In this document: piece by piece, positions 4,699 to 62,949 of the stretch
Layout: every line of letters starts with the position of its first letter
Position numbering within the stretch: position 1 is the stretch's first letter
The notes under the pieces: model-generated
Databases searched by the model: none
What the model was told of the DNA's origin: nothing
The model's input: only the letters and a program-made list of their open reading frames with translations
Assembly: GCA_028286725.1 (NCBI GenBank)
Contig: JAQBQZ010000012.1
Coordinates: 5,562 to 69,561 of the forward strand
Direction: 5' to 3'
DNA length: 64,000 nt
Origin: Candidatus Tayloriibacteriota bacterium
GTDB taxonomy: Bacteria > Patescibacteriota > Minisyncoccia > Phycocordibacterales > CAIRYW01
Program-made: the position numbers and the translations under genes

Positions 4699-4903
4699 AA
4701 CGAAAAATTTTTATAAAATTAACGAACTATTAATAATCAATTGATTATGCCTTTTTAACGAAAAAGACGAACGACATTCGACCGTAACATAATTATATCT
4801 TGTTTGAAGAAAATAAAAAGAAAAAAACAATTAAGTTGGGGAAAACATTTAGGTAGAATAAAGAATTCGGAATTAAGTATTATGTATAAAAAATAAATTC
4901 ATT

Positions 4904-15376: not shown

Positions 15377-15766
15377 TTAAATGAGCACCCTCTTCTCTAT
15401 ACAAAATGGAAGGATATAATTTTTTAAATCTAAATCGAGATCAAGCTTATCAAGCTCAAATCTGTTTACATAATTCCACAAATCAACCCCCTCAACATTT
15501 AAATTTATTCCACCCAAAAGTCTGATATCAAAAAGTGAAAATCTTTTTAGGTTTTTACCCTCAGTGATTTCTATATCACCTAACCGACTCATGATCTTTA
15601 AGTCCGTCCCAATGCGCCTCCGAATATAATGAATAAGTCTAATCTCTTCCCTGCTGTCTGTGGCGTCGATCATGGGACAGTACCAAAATCCGGTGTCTTT
15701 TTCTCTTAAGATAAAGAGTTTGTTATCTATCACAGATATTCCGACAATGAATTGGCTGGTCTTCAT
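15377..15766 (-). CDS. hypothetical protein
   Basis: 129-aa ORF with no recognisable motif. The overlapping plus-strand ORF 15660..15953 is considered spurious. Confidence 0.3.
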   Translation of the reverse strand: MKTSQFIVGISVIDNKLFILREKDTGFWYCPMIDATDSREEIRLIHYIRRRIGTDLKIMSRLGDIEITEGKNLKRFSLFDIRLLGGINLNVEGVDLWNYVNRFELDKLDLDLDLKNYILPFCIEKRVLI

Positions 15767-15967
15767 AAAAAAATATGTTACATATTATTATATGTGCATT
15801 GAATTAAATCGTAAACTAACTGTTGTTGATAAAGGGAGCGAGAGTTGGTCACAGATAATTTACTCGCCGTCGCAAAATGATTTGGGAGAGCGAGATATTC
15901 GATCGTTACACGATCAGTACCCCGATTGGATAATTTATTTCGTAAGCTCATAAATTATACTCAATCG

Positions 15968-16014
15968 GGCTTCGAATCTCGCACGCAAGCCATCCCAGGC
16001 TTGCTTCTCTCCGC
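15968..16014 (+). repeat. inverted partial copy of a tRNA 3' half (T-loop plus acceptor end) with an inserted hairpin
   Basis: gggcTTCGAATCtcgc-ACGCAAGCCatcccaGGCTTGC-ttctctccgca mirrors the 3' half of the adjacent minus-strand tRNA (..GTTCGAATCTCGCTCTCTCCGCA). Confidence 0.5.
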
Positions 16015-16070
16015 AAAAATATAAAAGCCTCAGCAATTATTGCTGAGGCTTTTATATTTTTGCGGAGAGA
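16006..16070. repeat. 65-bp near-perfect palindrome (bidirectional terminator hairpin plus duplicated tRNA acceptor end)
   Basis: tctctccgcaaaaatataaaagcctcagcaat | attgctgaggcttttatatttttgcggagaga. The right arm overlaps the tRNA 3' end. Confidence 0.7.
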
Positions 16071-16149
16071 GCGAGATTCGAACTCGCGAGACCGGTTAGG
16101 GTCCGGCGGTTTAGTAAACCGCTGATTTCAACCACTCATCCACCTCTCC
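16063..16149 (-). tRNA. class II (long variable arm) tRNA, Ser-like, apparent anticodon ACU (atypical)
   Basis: GGAGAGGTGGATGAGTGGTTGAAATCAGCGGT-TTACTAA-ACCGCCGGACCCTAACCGGTCTCGCGAGTTCGAATCTCGCTCTCTCCG. Acceptor 7 bp with one G-U, 3-bp D stem, TTCGAAT T-loop, G73 discriminator, CCA not encoded. The 7-nt anticodon loop UUACUAA gives ACU. Confidence 0.65.
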
Positions 16150-16215
16150 TTACGAGAGACAATATATCCTATTTTATCAATTTAGTATAGAGAATACAGA
16201 TACAATATTTGAGAG

Positions 16216-16743
16216 CTATTTTACCTCCTTAAGTTCGAGTGAAATATCAAGCACCACTTCATCCGAGAGAACGAATCCCCCTGTCTCAACAGCAGCATTC
16301 CACGTAAGTCCAAAATCTTTTCGACTGAGGCTTCCTTCAATATCAACACCTGCTATCTGAAGCCCGTCACCACCCTTTGAAATACCATTAAAATGTGCAG
16401 TGAGTGCAATTTCTTTCGTCACTCCATGCATTGTGAAATTACCTATTACTTCATATACATTTCCAGATCCTTGGCTAATCTTTGTTGATTCAAATGCCAG
16501 CTCTGGAAATTTTTCTACATCAAAAAAATCAGCAGATCTCAAGTGTCCATCACGCTGTTCATTATGGGTACTAATACTTGCTGCCTTTGTAGTGAATGTT
16601 ACTTTTGCAGTCTCATAATTGTCTCCCTCTGCAACAACTGATCCTGAAAAGTCGGCAAACTTGCCCTTAACTGTTGAGACCATCATATGTTTAATCTTAA
16701 AACCGATCTCTGAGTGCACACTATCAATATTCCATGTTGTCAT
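16216..16743 (-). CDS. YceI-like family protein (polyisoprenoid-binding, periplasmic-type)
   Basis: MTTWNIDSVHSEIGFKIKHMMVSTVKGKFADFSG N-terminal signature of the YceI family, 175 aa. Confidence 0.7.
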   Translation of the reverse strand: MTTWNIDSVHSEIGFKIKHMMVSTVKGKFADFSGSVVAEGDNYETAKVTFTTKAASISTHNEQRDGHLRSADFFDVEKFPELAFESTKISQGSGNVYEVIGNFTMHGVTKEIALTAHFNGISKGGDGLQIAGVDIEGSLSRKDFGLTWNAAVETGGFVLSDEVVLDISLELKEVK

Positions 16744-23059: not shown

Positions 23060-23296
23060 TTAAGATTTTTTCTTTTCGTCTCGAAGTACAATCATTTGTA
23101 TTGCTTTGTTTACTACCCTGGAATCTATGGGCGGCATAAATCTCGCCGCCTCTTTGGCAGAAGAATCAGGATGAGCTTTGAGAAAATCATGGAGCTCTAC
23201 AAGACCTTGAGCTTCCCGCTCGAGCTTTTGTTCTTCTGCGAGGTCGATGACGAGAGCAGGATGTGTGTTTTGGTTTTTTGGATCGAAGGGGTTCAT
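23060..23296 (-). CDS. hypothetical small protein
   Basis: 78-aa ORF immediately upstream of the VanW-like gene with a 6-nt spacer. Confidence 0.3.
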   Translation of the reverse strand: MNPFDPKNQNTHPALVIDLAEEQKLEREAQGLVELHDFLKAHPDSSAKEAARFMPPIDSRVVNKAIQMIVLRDEKKKS

Positions 23297-23339
23297 GGGG
23301 ATATTATAGAGATATTCACATCAAATAAATCACTATGCA

Positions 23340-23771
23340 TTAGCAAAAAACAATCTGAGATTTTTTTAGAATATAGCCCAAGAATAAAATCAGTAAAGTT
23401 GGGATAATAGAAAGCAATAAGGCACTGAGAACAAATATTATAATACTAGTAATAGATGCATGCTCAGGTATTGGAGCTTTTATAATTAAACTTATAAATG
23501 TTAAAAAGAATGACGTAAGATAATAGTATGAAAATAAACGAAAATTAAATGACTTTCTTTTGTGGAGAGAGTACAAAAGGACACTATCGACACATAGCAG
23601 AAGTCCCGCAATTAATACTGCCATCAATGAGTAGACATTGCTTCCGAGTATCAAAATTGAAGAAAGAGATGCAAAAATGGTAGCAATATCCTTCAAAATA
23701 CTAAATAGGAATATAACGAACAACAATACAAAACTTGACTTAATAACCCAATTTCTTTTTAAAAAATTCAT
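23340..23771 (-). CDS. hypothetical integral membrane protein
   Basis: 143 aa with four hydrophobic helices. Confidence 0.35.
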   Translation of the reverse strand: MNFLKRNWVIKSSFVLLFVIFLFSILKDIATIFASLSSILILGSNVYSLMAVLIAGLLLCVDSVLLYSLHKRKSFNFRLFSYYYLTSFFLTFISLIIKAPIPEHASITSIIIFVLSALLLSIIPTLLILFLGYILKKSQIVFC

Positions 23772-23831
23772 GGAATTAAATTAGTAATTAATATCCCATA
23801 GTATACAACACAACCACCGAACCTTCGACCA

Positions 23832-24167
23832 TTAAAACATTTTTGACCCGTTTGGAACCTTATGTGAAAGCATCGTTAGTACAATATCCCCATTCTGATC
23901 CGCAAACCCGGTTGTGAGAACCTCTGAGATAAATGGACCAATTTGTTTTGGTAGAAAATTCACCACACATACCACCTGCCTCCCCACCAATTCTTCTTTT
24001 GTATAATGTTTTACGATCTGAGCGCTCGATCTTTTGGTACCTTGTTCACCAAAATCGATAGTCAGTTTGTACGCTGGCTTTCGAGCTTCAGGAAAATCTT
24101 CGGAGATAATTATAGTCCCGACTCGAAGTTCCACTTTTTCAAAATCATTCCAAGATATTGTTTCCAT
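23832..24167 (-). CDS. tRNA-binding domain protein (CsaA/Trbp111/EMAP-like OB fold)
   Basis: VGTIIISEDFPEARKPAYKLTIDFGEQG...VVCVVNFLPKQIGPFISEVL matches the tRNA-binding OB-fold family, 111 aa. Confidence 0.7.
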   Translation of the reverse strand: METISWNDFEKVELRVGTIIISEDFPEARKPAYKLTIDFGEQGTKRSSAQIVKHYTKEELVGRQVVCVVNFLPKQIGPFISEVLTTGFADQNGDIVLTMLSHKVPNGSKMF

Positions 24168-24222
24168 AAGGAGATTTTATCATAAAAAATAAGTCCTGTA
24201 TTTCTACAGGACTTATCACTAA

Positions 24223-24987
24223 TTAAACAATCATAGTACCCACATCCTCTCCAGCAGCAAATCTAAGCAGAACATCTGGTTCAAGTCCTGCAATAGAAAC
24301 TTTCATACCTTTTTCAAAACACACAAAAGCCTCTTCGAGTTTGGGACCAATTCCTCCCGTGCCGTGATCCGACCTGCTTTCCGATACATCAATTTGTTTT
24401 AGTGTTTTCCTTCCAACAGTCTGATATCTCTTTGCAGAAATATCTTTCCTTGGATCTTTGTCGTAGACACCGCCAATATCAGTAAGAAACAGTATAGCGT
24501 CAGCACCAATCATCTCCGCTACCATTCGAGCCAACCTGTCGTTCTCACTGATGCCCGCCTCCATGGATTCAATCTCTCTTTGTGAGACAACGTCGTTTTC
24601 ATTCACAAGCGGAATTATTCCCGACTTGAAATATGAAAGAATACTTGTTCTGATACTTTCATATTCTTTTTTATGCACCCAATTTGTGTATGTGAGCCAT
24701 ATTTGTGCAACATCGAATCCATGATTCTCAAAAGAATTACCCCAGAGATTTAAAAGGTGTCTCGCTCCGATACCCGCCCATTCTTTTTTGGCGAGTTCTG
24801 GATTCTGACCAATGCGAGCTAACCGCTCTCTTCCCGCCTGGATTGCACCCGAGCTCACAAGCGCAACTTCGATTCCCTGTGATATAAGCTCTGCGACCTG
24901 CCGAGCAATGTCTGATGCTTTTGATGCATCAAGGCTGCCATCTGAAACCAAATTACCTGTACCGATTTTTACGACGACTCTTTTCAT
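24223..24987 (-). CDS. proB: amino-acid kinase family protein, glutamate 5-kinase-like (ProB without PUA domain)
   Basis: VVVKIGTGNL...VALVSSGAIQAG, NENDVVS, FLTDIGGVYDKDPRK, GTGGIGPKLEEA follow the ProB motif order. Confidence 0.6.
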   Translation of the reverse strand: MKRVVVKIGTGNLVSDGSLDASKASDIARQVAELISQGIEVALVSSGAIQAGRERLARIGQNPELAKKEWAGIGARHLLNLWGNSFENHGFDVAQIWLTYTNWVHKKEYESIRTSILSYFKSGIIPLVNENDVVSQREIESMEAGISENDRLARMVAEMIGADAILFLTDIGGVYDKDPRKDISAKRYQTVGRKTLKQIDVSESRSDHGTGGIGPKLEEAFVCFEKGMKVSIAGLEPDVLLRFAAGEDVGTMIV

Positions 24988-25097
24988 ATGATTATGTTTG
25001 ATTAATTGTTAAAGAACAAAAACACTCACAATGTGAGTGGCCCAGATACGTTCTGGTGGAAAATGTATTTATATATACAATCTTCCACCAACCAACA

Positions 25098-25125
25098 TAA
25101 AAGCCGCCCACTGAGGGCGGCTTTT
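25098..25125. terminator. terminator-like GC hairpin
   Basis: aaaagccgccc-actga-gggcggctttt. Confidence 0.5.
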
Positions 25126-25248
25126 AATTAATTAGAGAAAAAGAATTACCGCACCTCAATTAATGGGTGCTGGTGGAACGATATTGATTGTAATTCCTAT
25201 CGCTTTCATATGTTTAAGAATACTTTTATTTAAGAGGGTGTCAAGGAA

Positions 25249-25287
25249 GACGGAGAGAATTTCGAACCTTAGAGGTTCAGTGCGTCG
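25249..25287 (-). repeat. degenerate tRNA-Ser 3'-half-like fragment (candidate att-site remnant)
   Basis: gacggagagaatttcgaaccttagaggttcagtgcgtcg resembles the plus-strand image of the two tRNA-Ser 3' halves (tgcggagagagcgagattcgaac.. and tgcggagatggagggattcgaaccc..). Confidence 0.3.
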
Positions 25288-25328
25288 ATAGGATAATTTA
25301 TTTCGCGGATTAGTTTTTGGACACATAA

Positions 25329-25368
25329 TTAAGATAAAAGTTACACACAGGTGTAACTTTTATCTTAA
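25329..25368 (-). terminator. perfect 18-bp inverted repeat downstream of the 970-aa surface-protein gene
   Basis: ttaagataaaagttacac-acag-gtgtaacttttatcttaa. Confidence 0.5.
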
Positions 25369-25393
25369 GAACATTAGCTATTGATACTGTATT

Positions 25394-28306
25394 CTATAAC
25401 CCCGCCAACTGTTGCATTTTGTGTCTTGTCTTTGGTCCGACAATTCCTGAGACAGGATTGATGTTGTATTTTGATTGAAATATCTTAACCGCATTATGCG
25501 TGAAGTTGCCGAAATAGCCAGAGATGATCGCTTCCTGATAGCTGCCTTCGTAGATGAGATATTGTTGCAGATCTTTGACGGATTCTCCTTGATCGCCTTT
25601 TTTAAGATCAGTTTCAAATACTACAACATCGGTTGGAATATCAAGTTTTGTCTCTGACATTGATACGGTATTGAGTTTTTTCTGGGTTACTACATCAACA
25701 ATTCCTGTTTGGACCAATCCATGCTTCGCCTGGAATCGCTTGAGAGCAGCCTCAGTCCGCGAACCAAAGTAGCCAGTGATGTATTCCTCTGGATATGTTC
25801 CTTCGGCATGCAGAAGTTCCTGAAGATGCTCTATTTCAATATCAGTTGTTCCTTTCTGGAAAGTCTTTACAAAATGAAGCGCCGGTGTGGATGATGCAAG
25901 AGTTCCACTTTCATTGAACTTTACCTCTCTTACTCCTGCCCTTGGTGCAATGGAGATATTAACAGGCCTTGATGAACCTCCACCAGAGCTACGAGCAAAG
26001 ACTGTGTAGTTGTGAGTCACTCCATTCGTTTGATTAGTGTCTGTGAATGTTTCGCTATTACCTTCGTAGATGATAGCTCCATCTCGCTCGATAACTACGT
26101 CTTCATTAATATTTGGATTACCTTCGTTGATTTCAAAAACTACTTCTCCATCCACCCCCTCAACATCAACGATTGGAGTTTCTCCTTGGTCGGTGATGAT
26201 TGGAGCAGGAGGTGCTGTAGGAACACTAGAAAGACTTCCTGTAGTGGTGAACGTATAGTCCTCTGAAAACGTGACGTTTCCAACTTCATCAATGGACTTC
26301 AGTCGGTAATGATAGGTTGTACCTGAATTGAGACTGCTTAGGGAAACCGAATGAGAAGTGACAAGTGTTTCGGTATTTATACTCGAAGATCCGTAAGTAG
26401 TATCTGTGCCATACTCAACTTGCGATGTTGCTCCCTTGTCAGTCATCCAAGATATTGTCGCTCCTGTACTTGTAACTCCACCCGAAGAGACAGAAATAAT
26501 ATTTGCCGGTGCAACAACGGGAATCGAATGATTGAGTGTATTGAATTCCTCATTTGTAGAAACCGTAGCGACGGATGCTCCCACTGGTTTTGACTTCACT
26601 CGGAAGATGTAGTTGGTATTTGGAGCGAGCCCTGTGATGGTGACTGAATGTGAAGTAGTAAGTGTTGAACTAAGTGCAGTTACCGATCCAAAGTTCTCAC
26701 TATTTCCATATTGTACTTGCGAATCAGATGGTAGATCAGTATTCCAAGCGATTGTCACTGCTGAAGTGGATATTGATGTAGTTTCGATTCCTGAAATAAG
26801 GACAGTTGCAACTTGCGGTGCGGGCTGACCTTGAGTCTGAAATTCCACTTGTGACAAAGCATCAGTCGTGAATATCTCATCGGCACTCATTCCGATATTA
26901 CCCGAGACATCAGTTGAAGTGATTCGATAATGGTATGTGGTGTCAGGAGAAAGAGAAGACAAGATAGTCGAATGACTGAGAGATGCGTTACCACTAAGAT
27001 TCACTGTCGTGCCATAACTTGCAGTCGTACCATACTGAATGCTTGAAGTCGCAAGCTCACTTGTTGTCCAACCGATAGTAGCACCCGATGTCGTTATTGG
27101 AGCAACAGTGATGAGCGATATCTGCGGAGGAGTTGTATCAGCAGGAGTGGAAGGTGGCGTGATTACTGCAGGATCTGTTGTGAAAAAATTTGGACAATTG
27201 TTTGCCGTATTGCCAGCAAGGTCTGTAGCACGGATGCAATAGTAATATGTGCTGCTCGCAGTGAGTCCAGTAAGTGTTGCCGTGTGAGCGAGAAGTGCCG
27301 TGCCAGAAATTGTGGCATGAGAACCATAGCTCTGGCTCGTTCCATATTCAAGAGTTGAAATACTTAATTCGTTTGTATTCCAAGCCAGCGTTACATCAGT
27401 GATGCCAAGAGATGCGGTACCAATTCCTGAAATAATTGGTGCGGTCATATCAGTTGGCGAAACAACAACTTGAGGAGCTGGTTCTGAAACTACATTCTGT
27501 CCAGCAATCGGTTCGGTAGTGAATGTTTCGTCAGAAGTGATCGTCTCATTTCCAAACTCATCACTTGTGATGATGCGGTAATGGTAGAGAGTATTTGCTG
27601 TAAGACCTGAAAGAACTACTGCGTGTGTCAGCGCGAGATTGGTATCGAGATTCGCCGATTCTCCGTATCCTTCTGTAGTACCATATTCGACACGAGCATT
27701 GCCAACTTCAGTTGTAGTGAAATTAATTGTGGCTCCCATAGTGGTGATTGGAGCAACCGTTATCAAACTAACGTCTGGTGGAGTTGTGTCGACGACAACC
27801 GATTGAGAGGCAGTAGTAAAAATATGACCGCAGGAATTTGTTGCATTGTTTGCAAGGTCATGTGCATGAATACAGTAATAGTATATTGTGCCAGGAGTTA
27901 AACCTGTGAGAATCGCCGTGTGGGCAAGAAGTGCTGTAGCATCAAGGGTTGCACTTGATCCATAACTCTCCGTTGTTCCGTATTCAAAAGTAGAGATTGA
28001 AAGTTCGTCAGTGGTCCAAACAATCGTCGCATCATGAGTCGCAAGCGAAAGACTCGCAGCGCCAGAAATGACAGGACCAGTAGTGTCGCTAGCCGTTACT
28101 GTTTGCACAACAGGTTCAACAACTGTAGGAGTCGGCTCGGGTGTGGGACTAGGCGTCGGTTCTGCTGGAGGAGCAGGAGGTGCAGGTGGAGTTTCAACTG
28201 GTGGAGGAGTTGGTGGTGGAGTGACATCGCCGAGCTCGGCAAAAACAGGAGAAACATTTAATAAAAGTAATCCCACTATGAGTACAGACGAAAAGAACTT
28301 TTTCAT
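25394..28306 (-). CDS. large secreted cell-surface protein with Pro-rich N-terminal linker, ~7 FN3-like repeats and two C-terminal peptidoglycan-binding (PG_binding_1-like) domains
   Basis: Signal peptide MKKFFSSVLIVGLLLLNVSPVFA, PPPTPPPVETPPAPPAPPAEPTPSPTPEPTP linker, repeated ..ISG..TD.T.AW.T.ELS.S...YGT...YG......HTA.LTGL...T.YYY.I... units. C-terminus has two helical PG-binding-like repeats (TGYFGSRTEAALKRFQAKHGLVQTGIVD; SGYFGNFTHNAVKIFQSKYNINPVSGIVGPKTRHKM). Confidence 0.7.
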   Translation of the reverse strand: MKKFFSSVLIVGLLLLNVSPVFAELGDVTPPPTPPPVETPPAPPAPPAEPTPSPTPEPTPTVVEPVVQTVTASDTTGPVISGAASLSLATHDATIVWTTDELSISTFEYGTTESYGSSATLDATALLAHTAILTGLTPGTIYYYCIHAHDLANNATNSCGHIFTTASQSVVVDTTPPDVSLITVAPITTMGATINFTTTEVGNARVEYGTTEGYGESANLDTNLALTHAVVLSGLTANTLYHYRIITSDEFGNETITSDETFTTEPIAGQNVVSEPAPQVVVSPTDMTAPIISGIGTASLGITDVTLAWNTNELSISTLEYGTSQSYGSHATISGTALLAHTATLTGLTASSTYYYCIRATDLAGNTANNCPNFFTTDPAVITPPSTPADTTPPQISLITVAPITTSGATIGWTTSELATSSIQYGTTASYGTTVNLSGNASLSHSTILSSLSPDTTYHYRITSTDVSGNIGMSADEIFTTDALSQVEFQTQGQPAPQVATVLISGIETTSISTSAVTIAWNTDLPSDSQVQYGNSENFGSVTALSSTLTTSHSVTITGLAPNTNYIFRVKSKPVGASVATVSTNEEFNTLNHSIPVVAPANIISVSSGGVTSTGATISWMTDKGATSQVEYGTDTTYGSSSINTETLVTSHSVSLSSLNSGTTYHYRLKSIDEVGNVTFSEDYTFTTTGSLSSVPTAPPAPIITDQGETPIVDVEGVDGEVVFEINEGNPNINEDVVIERDGAIIYEGNSETFTDTNQTNGVTHNYTVFARSSGGGSSRPVNISIAPRAGVREVKFNESGTLASSTPALHFVKTFQKGTTDIEIEHLQELLHAEGTYPEEYITGYFGSRTEAALKRFQAKHGLVQTGIVDVVTQKKLNTVSMSETKLDIPTDVVVFETDLKKGDQGESVKDLQQYLIYEGSYQEAIISGYFGNFTHNAVKIFQSKYNINPVSGIVGPKTRHKMQQLAGL

Positions 28307-28597
28307 GTATTAAAAAATAATTATTAAAAACCAAGTGATCCAACTCATTATACAGGAGGAGAATTTATTAGATAGCAAAGGAGGGTATAACTATATTTTT
28401 TATCAAGCAATTTGAAAACCTACTGAAAAATCTAGATACTAATGAAATTGAGATCGAAGAGAAAATTGGTATCAACACTATCGATATACGAAGTTGCGCG
28501 AAATATGTGCTCCGAAAAGGAATGGATCCTGAAAAGAGAGAATTACTTTTTTTCCTTGAAAGAAAAATTAGCTTGAATAACAAATTAATTCATTTAT

Positions 28598-28978
28598 CTA
28601 ATTCTGAAAATCAACTTGGAATCGATACATTCCCATTCCACATGTACCTTGAATCGAAGCAACACTTGGAGTGCCTAGATCTATATCTGTTGTTCCTGTT
28701 TGAGGAAGGGTCTGACTTATATCCATACTTGGAATTCGAACTGATGATGAGCAATCAAATGTTCCGTTAGTGTCAAATCTTAGAACTGTTGGCATCCCAG
28801 CTTTTGCTGTACTTTTTAGCGGATGATATCCGCCCTTTGCACTGATCTCAATAATCTGTTTTCCATCAATAACACTCACATTGTTTGCGAGGGCATCTTT
28901 AGATCCTCCTTTACTTAGCATGAATGCTCCTCCGATAATAACTACAGCTACTACAATTGATACGATTATTGTTTTCAC
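28598..28978 (-). CDS. membrane-anchored cupredoxin-like domain protein (copper-associated)
   Basis: N-terminal TM then a ~100-aa beta-rich domain with Cys and His (GGYHPLKSTAKAGMPTVLRFDTNGTFDCSSSVRIPSM). Last gene of the cop cluster. Confidence 0.4.
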   Translation of the reverse strand: MKTIIVSIVVAVVIIGGAFMLSKGGSKDALANNVSVIDGKQIIEISAKGGYHPLKSTAKAGMPTVLRFDTNGTFDCSSSVRIPSMDISQTLPQTGTTDIDLGTPSVASIQGTCGMGMYRFQVDFQN

Positions 28979-28996
28979 AAATTATTTTTTATTATA

Positions 28997-30028
28997 CTAA
29001 AAATTAAATACTGGAGATATTGCGCCAATTACTACCAATGCATTGATAAGGTTGAATAATGCAAAGAGAATTACAATAAGGCCCGCCGACTTAAAGAATA
29101 TTCCTGACTTTGAACTATTTTGAATACTGAACGAACTAAAACTAACAAGAGCTAGTACGGGCAAAGTTCCGAGTGCAAACGAAACCATTGTCAGTCCACC
29201 CTTAAGAAAGCTTCCTGTTGTCAGAGTGTAGAGTTGCATCGATTGAGTGAATCCGCAGGGCAAGAAGAATGTTGCAACACCCACAAGTAGAGGTGTGAGC
29301 ATATGGTTGAGGCTTGAGACACTATGAGCTCGCTTTCCAATAAACTTTGGCATTGATGGTTGAAGTTTCTTTGCCCATGGAAAGACATCCAAAAGATTTA
29401 AGCCGAGTACAAACATGACAATGGCAATAATGAGTCCTAAAATAAAAGTAGCAGAACTATTCAATGTAAATGCAGAGCCTAAAGATCCGATCACTCCACC
29501 GAGAATAAAGAATGAGACAATTCGTCCTCCGTGGAACATAAGCTGAGGTCGTATCTTGTCTCCCTCTTTTGCAAAGGTTGCAGACATTGAGAGTACTAGT
29601 CCTCCGACTACTGCCATGCATGTTGATAGAGATGCAATAATGCCAATCACAAATGCTGTGCCGTAGGTGACTTTGCCTGCTCCCACAAGATTTACTAATC
29701 CTGCATATTGAAGCACTACAAACAAAACTGCAAAAGCTAGAGCAATGGGTATGGCTATTTTAAACTCTGACCAACAATTCTCTTTGATTTGTTTTTCAAG
29801 TGAAATACTATAGCCAAGAGATTCAATCTGTATGCTTAATTCTTCTGCAATCTGTTTCGGTTCTTTGTCCCCAAAATCTCCTGTCACTTCTATTGTGTGA
29901 TCCTTGAGATTTGATTTGCCACTGGTCACATTTTGTAGACTCCCAATCTTATCTTCTGTCAAAATGACACAAGAATTGCAATGCATACCGTGAATATGAA
30001 ATCGAAAAGTTTTAATAGCTGTTTTCAT
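28997..30028 (-). CDS. HMA (heavy-metal-associated) domain fused to a polytopic membrane domain (DsbD_2/CcdA-like or TauE-like permease)
   Basis: N-terminal ferredoxin-like metal-binding domain with GMHCNSC, then about 6-8 TM helices containing ASLSTCMAV and FFLPCGFT Cys motifs. Confidence 0.5.
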   Translation of the reverse strand: MKTAIKTFRFHIHGMHCNSCVILTEDKIGSLQNVTSGKSNLKDHTIEVTGDFGDKEPKQIAEELSIQIESLGYSISLEKQIKENCWSEFKIAIPIALAFAVLFVVLQYAGLVNLVGAGKVTYGTAFVIGIIASLSTCMAVVGGLVLSMSATFAKEGDKIRPQLMFHGGRIVSFFILGGVIGSLGSAFTLNSSATFILGLIIAIVMFVLGLNLLDVFPWAKKLQPSMPKFIGKRAHSVSSLNHMLTPLLVGVATFFLPCGFTQSMQLYTLTTGSFLKGGLTMVSFALGTLPVLALVSFSSFSIQNSSKSGIFFKSAGLIVILFALFNLINALVVIGAISPVFNF

Positions 30029-30030
30029 AA

Positions 30031-32313
30031 TTATAATTTCATTCTCTTAATTCTAAGTGAGTTCATAACAACCGTCACACTCTCGAATGCCATGATCGCT
30101 CCTGCAATTGCTGGACTCAATGTCCATCCATAGAATGGAAAGAGTATGCCCGCTGCAACTGGAATACCTATTGAGTTGTATCCGAATGACCAAATGAGAT
30201 TCTGCCAAATAGTTTTATTAGTCCTTTGAGCAAGATGTATTGCTTCTGCAACTTTTACAATATCACCTTTCAAAATAACGATGTCCGAGCTTTCGATTGC
30301 AATGTCCGAGCCATCACTCATTGAGATAGCAACATCAGCTTGAGCTAATGCCGGAGCATCATTTACTCCATCCCCAATCATTGCCACCTTAAAACCTTTT
30401 TTCTGTAATTCCTTAACAATATTTAGTTTATCTTCTGGCTTCACATCCGAATATATTTCATCTATTCCGAGTCCTTTAGCTACAGACTCACTTGTTGCTT
30501 TATGGTCGCCAGTTGCCATAACTACTTTGAGTCCAAGTTTTTTGAGTTTTACAATTTCATCTTTTGCTTCTGGTTTTACTGTATCATGTATTTTAATGAG
30601 TGAAAGAACTTCTTTTTCATCTGAAAGATAAAGTTCACGACCGTTTTCAAAACGAGCATCATCGAAATCTTTTTTTATTCCTTCTTCCGATTGCTTTAAT
30701 ACGCCTGCAACATATGCTCGAGAACCAAGATAGTATTTTTTGTTCTGATATTCTGCTGTTACTCCTTTGCCCGCAACTTCATTCAAGTTAGTAATAAGGA
30801 GTGGTTCTACTTTGTTTTCCTTAAGCCATGTCGCTACACTTTCAGATACGGGGTGCTTTGAAGATTTAGTAATTGAGTAGATGAGAGATTGTTTGAATCC
30901 CGTATCTTCTATATCACAAGTATGATTTTTATCTTTGCAATAAACTCCCTCGATAGCTAATTTATTATGTGTAAGTGTCCCAGTTTTGTCGAAGACAATC
31001 GCTGTGACCTTCGCTAGTTTTTCCAAACTCTCCGCATTCTTGATTAGTATTCCTCTTTCCGCACCTCGTCCAACTCCTGTAATGATCGCTGTTGGTGTTG
31101 CAAGACCAAGAGAACAAGGACATGCAATAACAAGCACCGCCATCGTGGTAGAAATGGCATATGCAAAAGCAGTAGTTAAGCCAAGAGTTGCATGGGCAAA
31201 TATCATCCACGATGCAAAAGTGAGTATCGCAATCCCAATTACTACATATACAAATACACCAGATATTCTGTCAGCAGTCCGTTCTATAGGAGCTTTTGAG
31301 TTTTGTGCATTTTCAACGATAGAAATAATATGAGCAAGTGCGGTATCTTTTGGGTCTTTAGTTACCTTGATATGGAGTACTCCTTGAAAGTTTTGCGTTC
31401 CTGCAAATACTTGATCATTTATACCTTTATCTACTGGAATTGCTTCACCAGTAAGGTTTGATTCATCAATTGAGCTTCCACCCTCTACAACAACACCATC
31501 AAGCGGTATTCGCTCATTAGGCTTTACGATAACAATGTCACTAATGTTTACTTTTTCGATTGAGACTTCAATCTCTTTACCATCACGAATAACTAAGGCG
31601 GTCTTACTTGTAAGTCCTGCTAGTTTTTGCAGAGATTCATTTGTCTTTTTCTTTGCACGAGCTTCGAGGTACTGTCCGAAAGCAATAAGACCGATCACCA
31701 CAATAACGACATCATAAAAATTAGAAGTAATATTTATGTACGGTGCTAATTCTTTTTCAAAGGCTGTGACAATAAAAGAGTATATAAAAGCGACGATAGT
31801 TGAGATACCCACAAGAGTATCCATATTTGCTGTGCGAGTCTTAAGAAATATCCAAACTGCTTTTATGTACTTTCTCCCTATGCCAAAGAGTACAAAAGAG
31901 GCAAAAATTGGCATCAGATGGTGAAAAACTTCATACACATTTGGAGACATTGCAGGGATTATATTGCTTTGAGAAAGTACCTCCCAAAACATCATTACAA
32001 AAGAGAATGCAACCATTGGTAAGATGAATTTCATTTCAAGTTCAGTATCTATTGCACCACCATTCTCACCATGATGATGGTCGGCAGAGGGGGACTTTTT
32101 ATCAAAATCTTCAAGCGTGTATCCAAATGGAGAAATAATATTAGAAAGTTTGATTGTATCAATTGGAGTATCGGTAAAACTAATGATGGCTTTTTCTTGA
32201 TTAAGTTTAACTGATACGGACTTAATTCCAGGAACCTGCTTAAGCTTGTCTTCTATAAGAATGACACAACTAGCACAATGCATACCTTTTACTTTATATA
32301 CATCTTCCATCAT
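30031..32313 (-). CDS. copA: copper-translocating P1B-type ATPase
   Basis: N-terminal HMA GMHCASC, TM CPC motif IACPCSLGLATP, phosphorylation site DKTGTLT, hinge GDGVNDAPAL, 760 aa. Confidence 0.9.
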   Translation of the reverse strand: MMEDVYKVKGMHCASCVILIEDKLKQVPGIKSVSVKLNQEKAIISFTDTPIDTIKLSNIISPFGYTLEDFDKKSPSADHHHGENGGAIDTELEMKFILPMVAFSFVMMFWEVLSQSNIIPAMSPNVYEVFHHLMPIFASFVLFGIGRKYIKAVWIFLKTRTANMDTLVGISTIVAFIYSFIVTAFEKELAPYINITSNFYDVVIVVIGLIAFGQYLEARAKKKTNESLQKLAGLTSKTALVIRDGKEIEVSIEKVNISDIVIVKPNERIPLDGVVVEGGSSIDESNLTGEAIPVDKGINDQVFAGTQNFQGVLHIKVTKDPKDTALAHIISIVENAQNSKAPIERTADRISGVFVYVVIGIAILTFASWMIFAHATLGLTTAFAYAISTTMAVLVIACPCSLGLATPTAIITGVGRGAERGILIKNAESLEKLAKVTAIVFDKTGTLTHNKLAIEGVYCKDKNHTCDIEDTGFKQSLIYSITKSSKHPVSESVATWLKENKVEPLLITNLNEVAGKGVTAEYQNKKYYLGSRAYVAGVLKQSEEGIKKDFDDARFENGRELYLSDEKEVLSLIKIHDTVKPEAKDEIVKLKKLGLKVVMATGDHKATSESVAKGLGIDEIYSDVKPEDKLNIVKELQKKGFKVAMIGDGVNDAPALAQADVAISMSDGSDIAIESSDIVILKGDIVKVAEAIHLAQRTNKTIWQNLIWSFGYNSIGIPVAAGILFPFYGWTLSPAIAGAIMAFESVTVVMNSLRIKRMKL

Positions 32314-32315
32314 TT

Positions 32316-32663
32316 TTATATTTTAATTCCAAATTTAGTAAGTAATAGAGCGTAAATTGTGTATCCTAGAAACATAACAATTATTGATACGAACATTGCT
32401 AAATTAAAAGTGAAGCCCATCTTTAACAAGGTCGGCAAAGTAACAAAAAACAATAGCGAAGGCAATACTGCCCAAAAAATATTATGGGACAAATCAATGA
32501 CCTTCCCCACATCTTTTGTGTCATGATAAAGCCACGTTATTGCAAGAATAGATGTTAGAGGTAAAGAAGCTACGATAGCACCAATAAAACTTAGACGTTT
32601 AGATATTTCAGATGCTAAAGTAATTATTAATGCAGAAACAATAATTTTAATAAGATATTGCAT
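32316..32663 (-). CDS. small hypothetical membrane protein co-transcribed with copA
   Basis: 115 aa with 3-4 TM helices, 3-nt spacer to copA. Confidence 0.4.
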   Translation of the reverse strand: MQYLIKIIVSALIITLASEISKRLSFIGAIVASLPLTSILAITWLYHDTKDVGKVIDLSHNIFWAVLPSLLFFVTLPTLLKMGFTFNLAMFVSIIVMFLGYTIYALLLTKFGIKI

Positions 32664-32667
32664 AAAA

Positions 32668-32943
32668 TTATTTTCTCTTTAGCTTATATACTTTTAATAT
32701 TTCATCTTTAGCTTTTGTAGCTTCCCCCGTAGTCATTTGTTTCGAAACGCAACAGTCCAAGTGATTTTCTAGTAGTATATCTTCAACATTTGAGAGAGCT
32801 TGTTTAACGGCAGAGGTTTGGGTAATAACATCAATACAATATTTATCTTCCTCAATCATTTTTTGAAGACCTCGCACTTGACCCTCGATCAACTTAAGTC
32901 GGCGAACAACTTTGTCTTTGCTATTTTTTTCTGTATATTTCAT
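32668..32943 (-). CDS. csoR: CsoR/RcnR-family metal-sensing transcriptional repressor
   Basis: LIEGQVRGLQKMIEEDKYCIDVITQTSAVKQAL...HLDCC: the W-X-Y-Z metal-ligand pattern (Cys, His, Cys) of copper-sensing CsoR, 91 aa. Confidence 0.75.
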   Translation of the reverse strand: MKYTEKNSKDKVVRRLKLIEGQVRGLQKMIEEDKYCIDVITQTSAVKQALSNVEDILLENHLDCCVSKQMTTGEATKAKDEILKVYKLKRK

Positions 32944-33062
32944 ATAAGAAATTATATACCCCCTAGGGGGTATGAGTCAATGGAAAGTAAAAAACACTTT
33001 AAAAGGTGTTTTTTACTTTCCATTTATAGCTAGATCGAGGCATCTCGATGCTTACTCGTGTT

Positions 33063-33092
33063 GGTGGAGATGGAGGGAATTTCGACCTCGAC
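33063..33092 (-). repeat. degenerate direct copy of the tRNA-Ser(GCU) 3' half
   Basis: ggtggagatggagggaatttcgacctcgac versus the gene's gcggagatggagggattcgaaccctcggt, about 165 bp beyond the tRNA 3' end. Confidence 0.45.
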
Positions 33093-33164
33093 TAAATTTT
33101 TGCCGTCGCAAAAATTTGTCTGGTCACCGGCTCGAATTTTTTGTTGCTACAAAAAATATACTAC

Positions 33165-33214
33165 GCCGTTCGAATCCCTCACGCAAGTGCGTTTAGCACT
33201 TGCTCATCTCCGCA
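33165..33214 (+). repeat. inverted partial copy of the tRNA-Ser(GCU) 3' half with an inserted hairpin
   Basis: gccgTTCGAATCcctc-ACGCAAGTGCgtttaGCACTTGC-tcatctccgcac. Same three-part architecture, including the ACGCAAG..CTTGC hairpin, as 15968..16014. Confidence 0.5.
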
Positions 33215-33256
33215 CAACAAAAATGGCGCCCTCAAAGGCGCTCATATTTGTAAGTG

Positions 33257-33345
33257 CGGAGATGGAGGGATTCGAACCCTCGGTGCGCTTTAAGACGCAC
33301 GCCTCTTTAGCAAAGAGGTAGATTAAACCACTCTCCCACATCTCC
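33257..33345 (-). tRNA. tRNA-Ser (anticodon GCU), class II
   Basis: GGAGATGTGGGAGAGTGGTTTAATCTACCTCT-TTGCTAA-AGAGGCGTGCGTCTTAAAGCGCACCGAGGGTTCGAATCCCTCCATCTCCG, long variable arm, G73, CCA not encoded. Confidence 0.8.
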
Positions 33346-33422
33346 GTATATTTTATTTTCGACAATTCAGGTCTCCCATATCTCCAAACTCACCTGAGAT
33401 TACCACAAAAAGCTGTATTTTT

Positions 33423-41650: not shown

Positions 41651-41699
41651 AATTAAATTATTTTATTAGAGTTAGATCTTTTCAAAAAGTTACCACTAG

Positions 41700-41773
41700 T
41701 GCGCATGCATGGACTCGAACCATGGACCCCAAAGGTATAAGCTTTGTGCTCTAACCAACTGAGCTACACGCGC
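41700..41773 (-). tRNA. tRNA with anticodon UAU (Ile-like, AUA-decoding)
   Basis: GCGCGTGTAGCTCAGTTGGTTAGAGCACAAAG-CTTATAC-CTTTGGGGTCCATGGTTCGAGTCCATGCATGCGC A. Canonical cloverleaf, A73, CCA not encoded. Confidence 0.7.
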
Positions 41774-46015: not shown

Positions 46016-46409
46016 GGGGATGACAGGCATAGACATGTAGATCCTTCATTAATGTGCGCAATCGAGTATCCTAAAACCTCGTAAAACTTATAGGAAACTC
46101 AAGTGCAAACGCACGAAAAGTTGTTTCTCCATATTTTGGAGCAAACGATTTTGCTTTCGCAACAGCTCGAGCATAGCTCGCTGAAGCTTTAAGCCATCTG
46201 ACTTCTTTGCTCTCTCTGGGAGAAGCTCAGGTGTAATACTCAGAGGATAGGATAGGGGCATTCCCGTCCCCTCTCCGAAACTTGGGATAGTTGTATATGT
46301 GTTCTGCTTTTCTAAAAGCATATGCAGCGAAACCAAAAGAGAAGATACATTGCGTAGACTCATTTCTGAAATTTACATGCACGGGGGTTCGATTCCGCCC
46401 ATCTCCACA
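46016..46409 (+). ncRNA. ssrA: tmRNA (SsrA), one-piece
   Basis: 5' GGGGATGA pairs with 3' ..GGGGGTTCGATTCCGCCCATCTCC-A (tRNA-like domain). PK1 region CCUCGUAAAAC...AGUGCAAACG resembles E. coli GCCUCGUAAAA...AGUCGCAAACG. Tag ORF GCA AAC .. GCA TAG is followed by a terminator hairpin. Confidence 0.8.
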
Positions 46410-46412
46410 CAA

Positions 46413-59605: not shown

Positions 59606-59606
59606 T

Positions 59607-59712
59607 GCTGGCGATTACCTACTTTCCCCTCCATAGAGTATCATCGGTACTACGAGGCTTAACTTCTGAGTTCGGAATGAGATCAGGTGTGGCCCTCGCG
59701 TCAAATCACCAA
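59607..59712 (-). rRNA. rrf: 5S rRNA
   Basis: Reverse complement contains CCGAACTCAGAAGTTAAGCCTCGTAGTACCGATG. The terminal helix GGTGATT/AATCGCC pairs. Confidence 0.75.
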
Positions 59713-60145
59713 CACAAAATTTTCAATTTTGTTTGTTAACTTCATTTATTCAAAAGCAAGAGATCTTTCAATCTCACGAAGCAGAAACAATTTAAACATA
59801 AAATTGTATCTCTTAATCAATAGAATCTTTAAATTCTATTTGATTTTCACATTTCCTAATAGGAATCGAACATTAGTACACCTCGACTTAAACGATTACT
59901 CGCCTTACATCTAGTGCCTATCAACGTGATCATCTCTCACGAGTCTCAAACGATTCCTAATCTTAAGGTTGGCTTCGCTCTTAGATGCTTTCAGAGCTTA
60001 TCCAATCCCGACATAGCTACGGAGCGGTGCCACTGGCGTGACAGCTCCCAGACCAGAGGTCAGTTCATCCCGGTCCTCTCGTACTAGGGACAAATCCTTT
60101 CAAGAATCAACGCCTGCAGTAGATAGGAGACCAACCTGTCTCACG

Positions 60146-61435: not shown

Positions 61436-61455
61436 CTCAATAAATGAGTAGCACA

Positions 61456-61490
<35 letters not shown>

Positions 61491-62903: not shown

Positions 62904-62949
<46 letters not shown>

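Follow-up and report, generated by a model that had tools for sequence, protein, structure and literature searches.

Two serine tRNA genes and their downstream repeat units

The DNA analysed here (the window) is a 64,000-nucleotide stretch from a Candidatus Tayloriibacteriota genome, in which two tRNA-Ser genes lie on the reverse strand. Both were called by ARAGORN and both exceed the 29-bit threshold of the Rfam tRNA model (RF00005): tRNA-Ser(GCT) at 33256-33345, with anticodon GCU, scores 56.5 bits, and tRNA-Ser(ACT) at 16062-16149, a class II gene with G73 and no encoded CCA, scores 52.0 bits. The agreement of the two programs upholds the initial annotation, which had described the latter as a class II serine tRNA with an ACU anticodon. 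Its alignment shows all the features of a class II serine tRNA: a 7-bp acceptor stem, a long variable arm, a T loop of UUCGAAU, G73, and a 7-nt anticodon loop, U-U-A-C-U-A-A, that includes U33. We found no alternative fold of this tRNA that would yield a standard anticodon. The further suggestion that U32-A38 and U33-A37 pairs extend the stem and leave a 3-nt loop is unsupported; ordinary GCU serine tRNAs of the group share the same UU...AA frame. An ortholog at a related locus (L036) has an identical loop accompanied by a compensatory change in the anticodon stem. Judged from these sequences, the ACU tRNA is a conserved isoacceptor, and its interpretation as an artefact can be dismissed. Codon counts in the source genome are 219 for AGU and 124 for AGC, with 149 for the arginine codon AGA.

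The ACU gene (locus 1) is followed by a perfect 32+1+32 palindrome at 16006-16070, whose arms (16006-16037 and 16039-16070) are 100% complementary. It consists of a copy of the acceptor 3' strand with G and CA, an A-tract, a G+C stem, a T-tract and then the complement, and the acceptor 3' strand is present on both of its sides. A G+C hairpin with a T-run on each strand can be read directly from the sequence at 16015-16061, and we read the palindrome as a bidirectional terminator-like hairpin that separates the tRNA from the elements beyond it. A terminator consensus scan returned 0 sites in 15600-16400, the loop probably being too short for its rules; the terminator reading therefore rests on the A-tract, G+C stem and T-tract themselves. 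The earlier description of a 65-bp palindrome carrying a terminator is thus borne out in part: the palindrome is present and perfect at locus 1 but only partial at locus 2 and at most other loci, and the hairpin has acceptor-end sequence or its complement on each side but no terminator call.

Overlapping the palindrome is an inverted copy (IC) of the tRNA 3' end, split in two by a hairpin (hp3). Part 1 of the IC (16005-16014, minus strand) copies the acceptor 3' strand, G73 and flank. On the plus strand it reads T, TCTCTCC and GC (16006-16014 being TCTCTCCGC), and on the tRNA-sense strand it is antisense, GC GGAGAGA A; this antisense is the reverse complement of the acceptor 3' strand (GGAGAGA) and differs from the 5' strand of the tRNA itself (GGAGAGG). 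Part 2 (15971-15982, minus strand; TTCGAATCTCGC) holds the T loop TTCGAAT and the T-stem 3' strand CTCGC on the plus strand, is antisense when read on the tRNA-sense strand, and is an exact complement of 16071-16082. Sequence and predicted fold place hp3, GCAAGCC-ATCCCA-GGCTTGC with flanks AC and T, at 15985-16004 (minus strand), exactly between the T-stem copy and the acceptor copy. In all, the IC spans the last ~22 nt of the tRNA in antisense: flank, G73, acceptor 3' strand, T-stem 3' strand and T loop. The hairpin-split inverted copy noted at first is therefore present at locus 1, and the three-part arrangement does recur at the second tRNA-Ser gene beyond chance: the motif TTCGAATCNNNCACGCAAG has only two sites in the window, against a shuffle mean of 0.05, and 0 of 100 shuffles contained two.

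The inverted fragment does not, however, stand free. It forms one end of a unit of 130-155 nt, which also contains two more hairpins and a third, direct copy (DC) of the tRNA 3' end some 90-100 nt past the IC. Read in the direction of the tRNA, the layout is terminator-like hairpin, IC split by hp3, hp2 and hp1, and finally DC, a sense copy of the tRNA 3' end that carries NCCA in some units. At locus 1, where all of these lie on the minus strand, hp2 (15921-15969) is a long hairpin, CCCGATTG...CAATCGGG with an extension, identified from predicted folds and with homologues at four related loci (L002, L013, L042 and L056). It is followed by hp1 (15901-15920), which is supported by covariation and comprises the stem-loop GATCG-TTACA-CGATC (15901-15915) and a conserved AGTAC (15916-15920). 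The DC (15884-15902) is a slightly degenerate copy of the tRNA 3' end, 83% identical to 16064-16081, and reads GGGAGAGCGAGATATTCGA on the plus strand and ...TCGAATAT CTCGC TCTCCC in tRNA sense.

Beyond the DC, at 15833-15883 (minus strand), a repeat search and alignment to locus 2 revealed a truncated remnant of a second unit, AGGGAGCGAGAG plus TTGGTCACAGATAATTT...GCCGTCGCAAAA; comparison with L078 and L025 likens it to the DC-proximal end of units of the L078 type and of class B. The second complete unit, with a class B interior, lies at 33062-33214 (minus strand) and was defined by repeats, folds and comparison with L005. Its DC (33066-33085), which is preceded by TGGT, the complement of ACCA, is exact at 33066-33078 and matches at 12/12 positions over acceptor and T stem. 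Then come interior hairpins (33086-33168), a T-loop and T-stem copy at 33169-33180 (GTTCGAATCCCTC at 33168-33180), hp3 (33183-33203) and an acceptor copy with G at 33204-33212 (CATCTCCGCAC at 33205-33215), all on the minus strand, and a terminator-like hairpin at ~33225-33241. The window thus holds one full unit per tRNA-Ser gene, plus the truncated copy at 15833-15883.

Distribution and conservation

For comparison we used 105 genome loci fetched by a single motif, whose hosts, where they carry the unit, are mostly Patescibacteria (CPR) and Burkholderiales. Motif matches convergent with a tRNA within 120 nt comprised 50 beside tRNA-Ser and 11 beside tRNA-Tyr. Among these motif-fetched loci an IC with a hairpin insert was found 3' of 41/57 Ser, 8/10 Tyr, 2/3 Lys and 1/2 Gly genes, and after none of 27 other bystander class I tRNAs. 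A unit-like position downstream of a class II tRNA gene was seen at both window loci and ~60 others, and the tRNA-inverted-fragment module proposed for a search of related genomes was found at ~100 other loci in total. Most related loci share the order tRNA, terminator-like hairpin, unit; true tandem arrays of units occur at seven (L002, L035, L054, L057, L074, L077 and L084).

Across these recurrences the IC and DC match their own adjacent tRNA. A tRNA-Leu(TAA) gene, of class II like the Ser and Tyr genes, with a variant T loop, TTCGAGT, has a unit in which the IC reads ACTCGAA and the DC reads CGAGT, which indicates that the copies track the T loop of the neighbouring tRNA. The unit is restricted to certain lineages, since it was absent from all 109 usable, unrelated tRNA-Ser genes with a common (sX4-type) 3' end that a metagenome scan returned. 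No Xanthomonas-type locus was among them, and the scan serves only as a negative control.

Rfam has no family for the unit. A gathering scan of the window with Rfam 15 produced no family that fits it, and neither did relaxed scans of the two tRNA-Ser loci and of 16 related ones; these returned only tRNA, palindrome-driven miRNA-like noise and sub-threshold matches to the Xanthomonas small RNA sX4 (RF02223). The last of these score 11.6 and 18 bits in the window and 41-46 bits (threshold 70) over tRNA-Ser(CGA) and the palindrome at Massilia loci; the match is carried by the tRNA-Ser part, and the downstream part of sX4 does not have the IC/hp3 layout. In Xanthomonas campestris pv. vesicatoria sX4 has an expected length of 156 nt and was detected at 280-300 nt (PMC3300014). 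We rejected a link to sX4, and the resemblance does not speak for expression of the unit. The literature searched held no description of a tRNA-linked element in CPR.

The unit is as strongly conserved as its tRNA. Relative to the closest relative, L005, unit and tRNA together are 94.6% identical, as against ~80-81% for the coding flanks, with 7 changes in the ~190 nt of the unit and 5 in the 90-nt tRNA. Intergenic flanks cannot be aligned between the two genomes, and at unit 2 conservation begins abruptly at the DC. The inverted fragment is therefore conserved at an orthologous tRNA locus, well above the ~81% of flanking genes. Neither this comparison nor the folding of the anticodon arm thus produced the outcomes that had been named beforehand as contradicting the initial annotation.

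The hairpins of the unit covary. In related loci hp3 occurs in 57-63 distinct versions, with its inner 3 bp paired in 97.1% of cases versus 44.6% after shuffling, and hp1 is represented by 23 distinct covarying stems, 92% paired versus 58% in shuffles. Fold z-scores of the units range from -5 to -8. Among the compared loci we found no compensatory IC/DC changes independent of the tRNA; one copy or the other drifts alone, and at 16 loci it is the IC that has drifted, with the DC remaining identical to the tRNA. We accordingly rejected an RNA minihelix maintained by compensatory changes between IC and DC. Nor would a minihelix be universal, since the acceptor part of the DC is missing from some Massilia units. 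Two further candidates were discarded. The tRNA-sense loop of hp1, UGUAA, contains GUA and could suggest an anticodon arm, but the same loop is found beside Ser, Tyr and Lys genes alike and its flanking bases always pair. A derivation of hp3 from the variable arm is contradicted by the lack of covariation with that arm between the window and L005.

Orientation of the unit

The strand on which the unit acts is more likely to be that of the tRNA than the convergent one, on moderate evidence from the pattern of its pairing. Lone mismatches within Watson-Crick helices are A.C, which corresponds to G.U on the tRNA-sense strand, in 14 cases, versus G.T in 3. For 41/44 units the tRNA-sense strand gives the better fold of the interior, an asymmetry in folding energy that may in part reflect base composition. 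The corresponding strand test gave 5 versus 3 for hp3 and, by our reading, ~4 versus 6 for the closing helix. Shuffle-corrected z-scores favour neither strand, those of the two window units being -6.05 and -8.04 on the plus strand versus -5.10 and -7.63 in tRNA sense. Terminators after the DC were rejected as a strand marker, with 13 in tRNA sense and 16 in the opposite sense among 42 units; terminator-like hairpins next to the DC are enriched all the same, being present in about a third of units versus 3/87 random stretches.

No convincing or conserved promoter was found before the unit on either strand, at the window loci, at related loci or in the comparison with L005. Counting against read-through from the tRNA gene, the palindrome between tRNA and unit looks like a good terminator. 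In favour of the tRNA strand, the DCs of unit 2 and L005 carry A-CCA or G-CCA, though the tRNA genes there encode no CCA. The IC complements G73 and flank as well as acceptor and T stem, so that its pairing with the DC would give a helix without the free NCCA tail of a pre-tRNA.

Discussion

Behind both tRNA-Ser genes lies a single conserved tRNA-end repeat unit of ~130-155 nt. We propose that it is transcribed and processed together with the tRNA and that its design makes it a new relative of the RtT repeats found after the E. coli tyrT/tyrV tRNA-Tyr genes; our confidence in this account as a whole is evenly balanced with our doubt. The unit would be transcribed on the tRNA strand, probably through read-through of a leaky hairpin after the tRNA. 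In the transcript, IC and DC would pair into a 12-bp helix that mimics the minihelix of acceptor and T stem and ends in the discriminator, and tRNA end-processing enzymes may then free it as a stable small RNA, the fate that has been reported for rtT RNA. In a read-through transcript that escapes processing, the IC would instead capture the 3' end of the tRNA and leave the tRNA 5' strands to pair with the DC; such swapped pairing appears when tRNA and unit are folded together in silico. The likeness of the three copies of the tRNA end may be maintained through gene conversion with the tRNA gene and through local duplication.

The closest known analogue of the unit is the RtT repeat (RF00391). 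In E. coli, RtT repeats of 178 bp lie distal to tyrT-tyrV, arranged in tandem and in the orientation of the tRNA, and in the tyrT operon rttR corresponds to one repeat unit (PMC3318445). A preprint summarises a proposed connection of this poorly understood RNA with the processing of transcripts and with the stringent response (bioRxiv 10.1101/2024.07.17.603846). Both elements lie directly downstream of a class II tRNA gene, with same-strand expression assumed in our case; both end with a direct copy of the tRNA 3' end, in E. coli the last 19 nt of tRNA-Tyr (AATCCTTCCCCCACCACCA); both have structured hairpins between the copies; and both can form tandem units, here at related loci. An internal complement closes each into a helix, here according to predicted folds and in E. 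coli through GGGGAAGG, which begins the closing helix and is complementary to the T-stem 3' strand plus the first part of the acceptor 3' strand. The two also differ. The antisense copy described here covers the whole acceptor strand, G73, flank and T loop and is interrupted by hp3, a conserved, covarying hairpin that has no equivalent in RtT, and a terminator-like palindrome parts tRNA from unit. Most of the host tRNAs are Ser, the others being Tyr, a Leu and a few Lys and Gly, and the host organisms are Patescibacteria and Burkholderiales rather than Enterobacteria. RF00391 had no match in the window at gathering threshold, at either locus at E<=10, or at 16 related loci; E. coli RtT units score 133-137 bits with this model, and its 45-bit threshold is not reached here. 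The failure to match argues for a new variant rather than a member of the RtT family.

A role at the level of DNA, with no RNA involved, is a rather unlikely alternative. The unit would then be the footprint, or an att-like module, of recombination at the tRNA 3' end, whether by site-specific integration with crossover in TTCGAA, the palindrome at the core of the T loop, by unequal crossing-over, or by an inverted duplication primed by a hairpin at the terminator. In that case hp1-hp3 would serve as hairpins in DNA or as sites for protein binding and might belong to a non-autonomous mobile mini-element. Tyrosine integrases that target tRNA genes leave direct repeats of the tRNA 3' end as the attL and attR of genomic islands and prophages. 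Here, too, direct repeats of the tRNA 3' end bracket a short segment, the downstream one starting from the T loop shortly after an intact gene; the copies include non-tRNA flank; the tandem arrays resemble tandem accretion; and tRNA-plus-unit modules are duplicated. In Massilia, a GGCTCCC...GGGAGCC terminator hairpin of the tRNA's own type comes after the DC at L105 and L062, and a perfect T-stem/hp3/T-stem palindrome beside a truncated tRNA (L086) looks like a product of recombination at hp3. Across loci hp3 has very few G.U-type pairs (8/223), and an identical hp3 base sequence occurs in two distant phyla. However, the repeats are only ~110-170 bp apart, with neither integrase nor cargo between them, and they are accompanied by an extra inverted copy with an inserted hairpin and by strong purifying selection, neither of which is typical of att sites. 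No integrase or mobile-element gene lies beside either window locus, where Pfam matches include YceI, HxlR, CsoR and a copper ATPase among others, and nothing in the Burkholderiales flanks, which were read by eye, looked like an integrase. The unit had no match in plasmid or phage collections or in 2.9 million viral contigs, and we reject a phage or plasmid origin. We also rejected a genomic-island border: L005 does not have the stretch corresponding to window positions 23296-33050 beside unit 2, but the genes on this stretch (uridylate kinase-type, tRNA-binding domain, copper resistance) are ordinary and include no integrase, and nowhere else in the window is the tRNA end copied again. Conservation at the level of a tRNA, between genomes whose genes differ by ~19%, would not be seen in a passive scar, and a dispersed MITE would not resemble an element that has a copy or two at each tRNA gene and matches the tRNA in question.

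It is also unlikely, to a slightly greater degree, that the unit is a convergent small-RNA gene, transcribed on the plus strand towards the tRNA and ending at a shared bidirectional terminator. Such an RNA would be tRNA-like, its 5' end (DC) pairing with its 3' end (IC), with hp3 as an extra arm, a canonical UUCGAAU T loop beside the T-stem 3' strand, and G73 (plus CCA in Burkholderiales). Read on the plus strand, the T loop is indeed oriented and placed normally with respect to the T-stem 3' strand, and even units that were met incidentally conserve it strictly. A- and T-tracts flank the hairpin after the IC on both sides, the IC of Burkholderiales ends in GCCA followed by the terminator, and the plus-strand z-scores are slightly better. 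Against this, the wobble and mismatch asymmetry of the interior favours the tRNA-sense strand, and a hairpin or the end of another unit often directly precedes the DC, which leaves no room there for a promoter. Window and L005 share no conserved sequence upstream of the DC, decay is faster in the IC than in the DC, and the only characterised analogue is made in the orientation of the tRNA. The unit shares an acceptor/T-stem-like helix, a T-loop sequence, non-tRNA hairpins and, in some units, NCCA with the tRNA-like domains of tmRNA, the Y RNA YrlA and viruses. It differs from them in that its mimicry follows the very sequence of the neighbouring tRNA, not a general form, and in having neither a D-loop partner nor a free 3' tail on its helix; relaxed scans of both loci gave no match to tmRNA or any other Rfam model at the unit. 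The window has a normal tmRNA at 46016-46410 (Rfam).

More speculative, and improbable in our estimation, is a function of the unit as an RNA matched to its tRNA, either binding the tRNA 3' end or, in its closed form, serving outside translation as an aminoacylatable serine or tyrosine minihelix. In the binding version, the split antisense segment, which complements the final ~22 nt of one particular class II tRNA, would unfold to base-pair with that tRNA or its precursor, and the sense copy would act as a built-in competitor; the outcome could be a per-tRNA switch, a sponge or a primer-binding site. If this were true, the unit would represent an unrecognised class of tRNA-specific regulatory RNA in CPR and Burkholderiales. 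Chance similarity or an assembly artefact around a terminator, for which only the general frequency of hairpins after tRNA genes speaks, is refuted by the two window loci against 0.05 expected, by ~100 independent assemblies, isolate genomes included, and by the covarying hairpins.

Very few A34 tRNA genes exist (PMC11066159), and tRNA-Ser(ACU) is a rare instance of A34 within a split codon box, in a genome that prefers AGU. For annotation more generally, the T-loop and acceptor sequences of the units could be mistaken for tRNA fragments, att sites or pseudogenes. CPR bacteria have reduced genomes, in which any conserved non-coding stretch is notable, and the occurrence of the unit in culturable soil Burkholderiales makes it experimentally accessible. 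If real as RNA, the units would make up a large family of structured elements that goes with class II tRNA genes and has so far escaped cataloguing. They would also give a comparative handle on RtT, an E. coli RNA, and suggest that units built from copies of a tRNA tail are a recurrent design and not an E. coli oddity.

Results

The inverted tRNA fragment described in the initial annotation is part of a larger repeat unit of approximately 130-155 nt, found behind both tRNA-Ser genes of the window (locus 1, ~15833-16149; locus 2, ~33062-33345). At locus 1 the reported palindrome is exact, with 32-nt arms (16006-16037 and 16039-16070) that are 100% complementary. The reported inverted copy of the T-loop and acceptor end, split by a hairpin, is likewise exact: TTCGAATCTCGC (15971-15982) is the perfect complement of 16071-16082 and is followed by AC, a hairpin (15985-16004), T and then TCTCTCCGC. 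Locus 2 repeats this order, as had been claimed, and the motif TTCGAATCNNNCACGCAAG, common to both loci, occurs at only these two sites in the window (shuffles average 0.05). Repeat finding and a two-locus alignment revealed that the tRNA 3' end is present a third time, in direct orientation, ~90-100 nt past the inverted copy. This direct copy is degenerate at locus 1 (15884-15902) and matches at 13/13 positions at locus 2 (33066-33078), and predicted folds place two hairpins between the inverted and direct copies.

Read in the tRNA direction, the order is terminator-like hairpin, inverted copy, hairpin hp2, hairpin hp1 and direct copy. The inverted copy consists of antisense flank, N73 and acceptor 3' strand, then A, a further hairpin (hp3), GU, and the antisense T-stem 3' strand and T loop (AUUCGAA); the direct copy consists of (C)GAA(A)U(U), T-stem 3' strand, acceptor 3' strand and N73. 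The inverted copy at locus 1 reads GGAGAGA, complementing the 3' strand and differing from the tRNA's own 5' strand (GGAGAGG), and is therefore truly antisense. A truncated second unit is retained at locus 1 (15833-15883).

The window derives from a CPR/Patescibacteria-like genome, judged by its G+C content of 39%, a 3.6-kb 23S rRNA that carries a group I intron, and nearest relatives among Patescibacteria MAGs. ARAGORN finds three tRNAs: tRNA-Ser(ACT) (16062-16149, minus strand), tRNA-Ser(GCT) (33256-33345, minus strand) and tRNA-Ile(TAT). The ACU anticodon noted initially is upheld by the ARAGORN call and an Rfam tRNA model score of 52.0 bits (56.5 bits for the GCT gene). The ACU gene shares its D arm and its loop, UUACUAA, with a tRNA-Ser(ACU) gene at the comparison locus L036, one compensatory pair separates the anticodon stems (GCGGU/ACCGC versus ACGGU/ACCGU), and both genes stand apart from the group's GCU-type genes; on this comparison, ACU is a conserved isoacceptor and not an error. 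The suggestion that U32-A38 and U33-A37 close the loop to 3 nt found no support, since GCU tRNAs have the identical UU...AA frame and give no ground for expecting such a loop. A Watson-Crick reader of AGU makes sense for the codon usage of the window genes (AGU 219, AGC 124, AGA 149), and inosine at position 34 would carry the risk of AGA being read. A34 tRNA genes are generally rare (PMC11066159). The tRNA-Ile(TAT) gene (anticodon UAU; 41699-41773, minus strand) represents an uncommon bacterial route to AUA decoding; the window's long ORFs contain 266 ATA codons, the gene is also present in three related loci (L002, L020, L049), and no repeat unit follows it. Elsewhere in the window, the 23S rRNA gene (59855-63480, minus strand) spans 3626 bp where the model has 2925 positions, and a group I intron is matched within it (60175-60393, 54.7 bits), with a 5S rRNA at 59606-59713.

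The unit is widespread. Scanning 185,579 species genomes once for TTCGAATCNNNCACGCAAG-gap-CTTGC yielded 105 loci, most of which belong, by record title, to one of two groups, Patescibacteria (Paceibacteria, Kaiser-, Nomura-, Taylor- and Lloydbacteria, and bins labelled Saccharibacteria) and Burkholderiales (Duganella, Massilia, Janthinobacterium, Rugamonas, Cupriavidus); a few long-gap matches seem fortuitous. In 50 cases the motif lies convergent to a tRNA-Ser at a distance of at most 120 nt, and in 11 cases to a tRNA-Tyr. Viewed from the tRNAs of these loci, an inverted copy with hairpin insert lies behind 41/57 tRNA-Ser, 8/10 tRNA-Tyr, 2/3 tRNA-Lys and 1/2 tRNA-Gly genes, and behind 0/27 of other class I types, a comparison in which only bystander tRNAs serve as control because the loci were chosen by motif. 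At least one tRNA-Leu carries a unit: L018 contains three successive tRNA-hairpin-unit modules (Leu-TAA, Lys-CTT, Leu-TAG), and the variant T loop of Leu-TAA (TTCGAGT) recurs in its inverted (ACTCGAA) and direct (CGAGT) copies, so the copies track the T loop of their neighbour. As a negative control, no unit lay behind any of 109 metagenomic tRNA-Ser genes with one common 3' end. The motif was absent from 2.9 million viral contigs, and a Massilia unit had no match in phage and plasmid collections.

At several Patescibacteria loci the unit is followed by no tRNA, but by a second conserved G-rich, hairpin-rich stretch of ~250-300 nt (L013, L023, L028, L079 and L102, GCGGTGTTTGTTGGACAAAGTTCGAA...; L022, L029, L041 and L074, GGCGGTGAGATATTGGCCTTTGCGCGAACC...). 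The start of this stretch resembles a complemented tRNA 3' end, and Rfam holds no match to it.

The arrangement first proposed as a functional or mechanistic element is conserved at the orthologous tRNA locus of the closest relative (L005), where unit and tRNA (296 nt) are 94.6% identical while flanking genes show ~80-81% nucleotide identity and the intergenic flanks are unalignable. Conservation starts abruptly 2 bases before the direct copy and stops at the tRNA 5' end. Within it lie 7 changes in ~190 nt of unit and 5 in the tRNA, all compensatory and in the variable arm. The inner three pairs of hp3 are 97.1% paired across 57 distinct versions (shuffles 44.6%, maximum 55%), with all four Watson-Crick pair types at each position, and hp1 is 92% paired across 15 distinct versions under strict criteria (23 under looser ones; shuffles 58%). 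This covariation rules out a decaying scar.

L005 lacks ~9.7 kb of the window (23296-33050) between its syntenic blocks, a stretch ending right at the direct copy of unit 2. Its genes are one of uridylate-kinase type, those for a tRNA-binding-domain protein and a 970-aa FN3/peptidoglycan-binding protein, and a copper-resistance cluster; no integrase was found in it. A perfect palindrome, ATACCCCCTAGGGGGTAT (32956-32973), which looks like a putative CsoR operator, precedes the gene for a CsoR-type repressor (32668-32943), after which come HMA and copper-ATPase genes, and adjoins a hairpin with a 22-bp stem (32979-33024) between the copper operon and unit 2.

Discussion

The direct copy agrees with the tRNA while the inverted copy differs in 16 loci, and the reverse holds in about 10. 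Across the compared loci the two copies never share a change that is absent from the tRNA; the pattern fits homogenisation with the tRNA gene, or selection for the match, and not an independently evolving helix. Tandem unit arrays are common, tRNA-Ser(CGA)+unit modules are duplicated in Massilia, and at two Massilia loci (L105, L062) the direct copy is followed by a terminator hairpin of the GGCTCCC...GGGAGCC type, like the tRNA's own. In Duganella rivi (L086, ~4769-4830) a T-loop/T-stem copy, hp3 and the tRNA's T stem and T loop form one perfect palindrome; this tRNA is truncated, lacking its acceptor end and terminator, ARAGORN finds no tRNA there, and the locus resembles the outcome of recombination at hp3. 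These repeats clearly do undergo rearrangement at the DNA level; a reading of the unit itself at the DNA level we consider less likely.

Transcription of the unit on the tRNA strand is held with moderate confidence, because supporting, neutral and contrary evidence coexist. The interior folds better on this strand in 41/44 units, isolated mismatches in Watson-Crick helices are mostly A.C (14, equivalent to G.U on the tRNA strand; G.T, 3), A-CCA or G-CCA follows the direct copy in unit 2 and L005, where the tRNA genes lack CCA, and the E. coli analogue, RtT, is made in the tRNA direction. Both strands fold well, shuffle-corrected fold scores favour neither, and neither hp3 (5 versus 3) nor the closing helix (about 4 versus 6 on our reading) shows a strand bias. 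The canonical T loop lies on the opposite strand, and terminator-like hairpins beside the direct copy are enriched, yet the tRNA strand carries no more of them than the other (13 and 16 of 42; random 3/87). Transcription from the opposite strand, which would carry that T loop, is considered less likely. No promoter for the unit is evident.

E. coli tyrT is followed by 178-bp repeats, and in K-12 rttR is annotated directly after tyrV. The four K-12 RtT units score 133-137 bits on RF00391, whose closing helix pairs GGGGAAG(G) with CCTTCCC(C), and all four terminate in AATCCTTCCCCCACCACCA, which corresponds to the 3'-terminal 19 nt of tRNA-Tyr. In RtT as in the present unit, the tail of a class II tRNA recurs in sense orientation, has an antisense partner inside the unit and is separated from it by hairpins, and the unit is repeated. 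Against this, hp3, a full-length antisense segment including T loop and flank, and a terminator-like palindrome are found only in the present unit, and neither window locus nor the related loci scanned reach RF00391 by model score; the unit is therefore filed outside the family, by analogy, as one that would work like RtT but is of a new type. rttR is one repeat unit of the tyrT operon (PMC3318445); a 2024 preprint (10.1101/2024.07.17.603846) sums up the part proposed for it in processing of the tyrT transcript and in the stringent response, and gives the mode of action as unknown. In E. coli SK1144 (L226, NZ_AP018784.2 2698163-2698365), two tRNA-Tyr genes lie 33 nt apart beside purU, with desaturase-family genes directly after them and no rttR annotated, so RtT repeats appear variably present among strains. 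The Rfam model of the Xanthomonas sRNA sX4 (RF02223) is essentially a tRNA-Ser(CGA) primary transcript with its 3' hairpin. Sub-threshold matches to it arise wherever a palindrome lies behind a tRNA of this kind, in Massilia and Cupriavidus (L105, L077, L094) and in the window (16001-16133, 33202-33348), and tRNA-Ser loci may underlie sX4 annotations in Betaproteobacteria, for example in Herbaspirillum (PMC6337395).

For the expression and function of the unit, we infer that transcription would start at the tRNA promoter and run through a leaky hairpin, that the inverted and direct copies would fold into a 12-bp acceptor/T-stem mimic, and that tRNA end-processing enzymes would release the unit. 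In the computed minimum-energy fold of the tRNA+unit read-through RNA, strands are swapped (z = -13.5 and -11.8): the tRNA's T loop, T-stem 3' and acceptor 3' strands pair with the inverted copy in a ~45-55-bp hairpin with an hp3 branch, and the direct copy pairs with the tRNA's 5' acceptor and T-stem strands. The observations of the initial annotation stand in full, its interpretation only in part. With its described anatomy, match to the neighbouring tRNA, covariation and conservation, the unit is a real and widespread feature under selection. Rfam has no family for it, and the description that suits it best is a new type of RtT-like tRNA-end repeat unit, whose swapped fold could act as a switch, provide an RNase III site or form a fail-safe 3' end.
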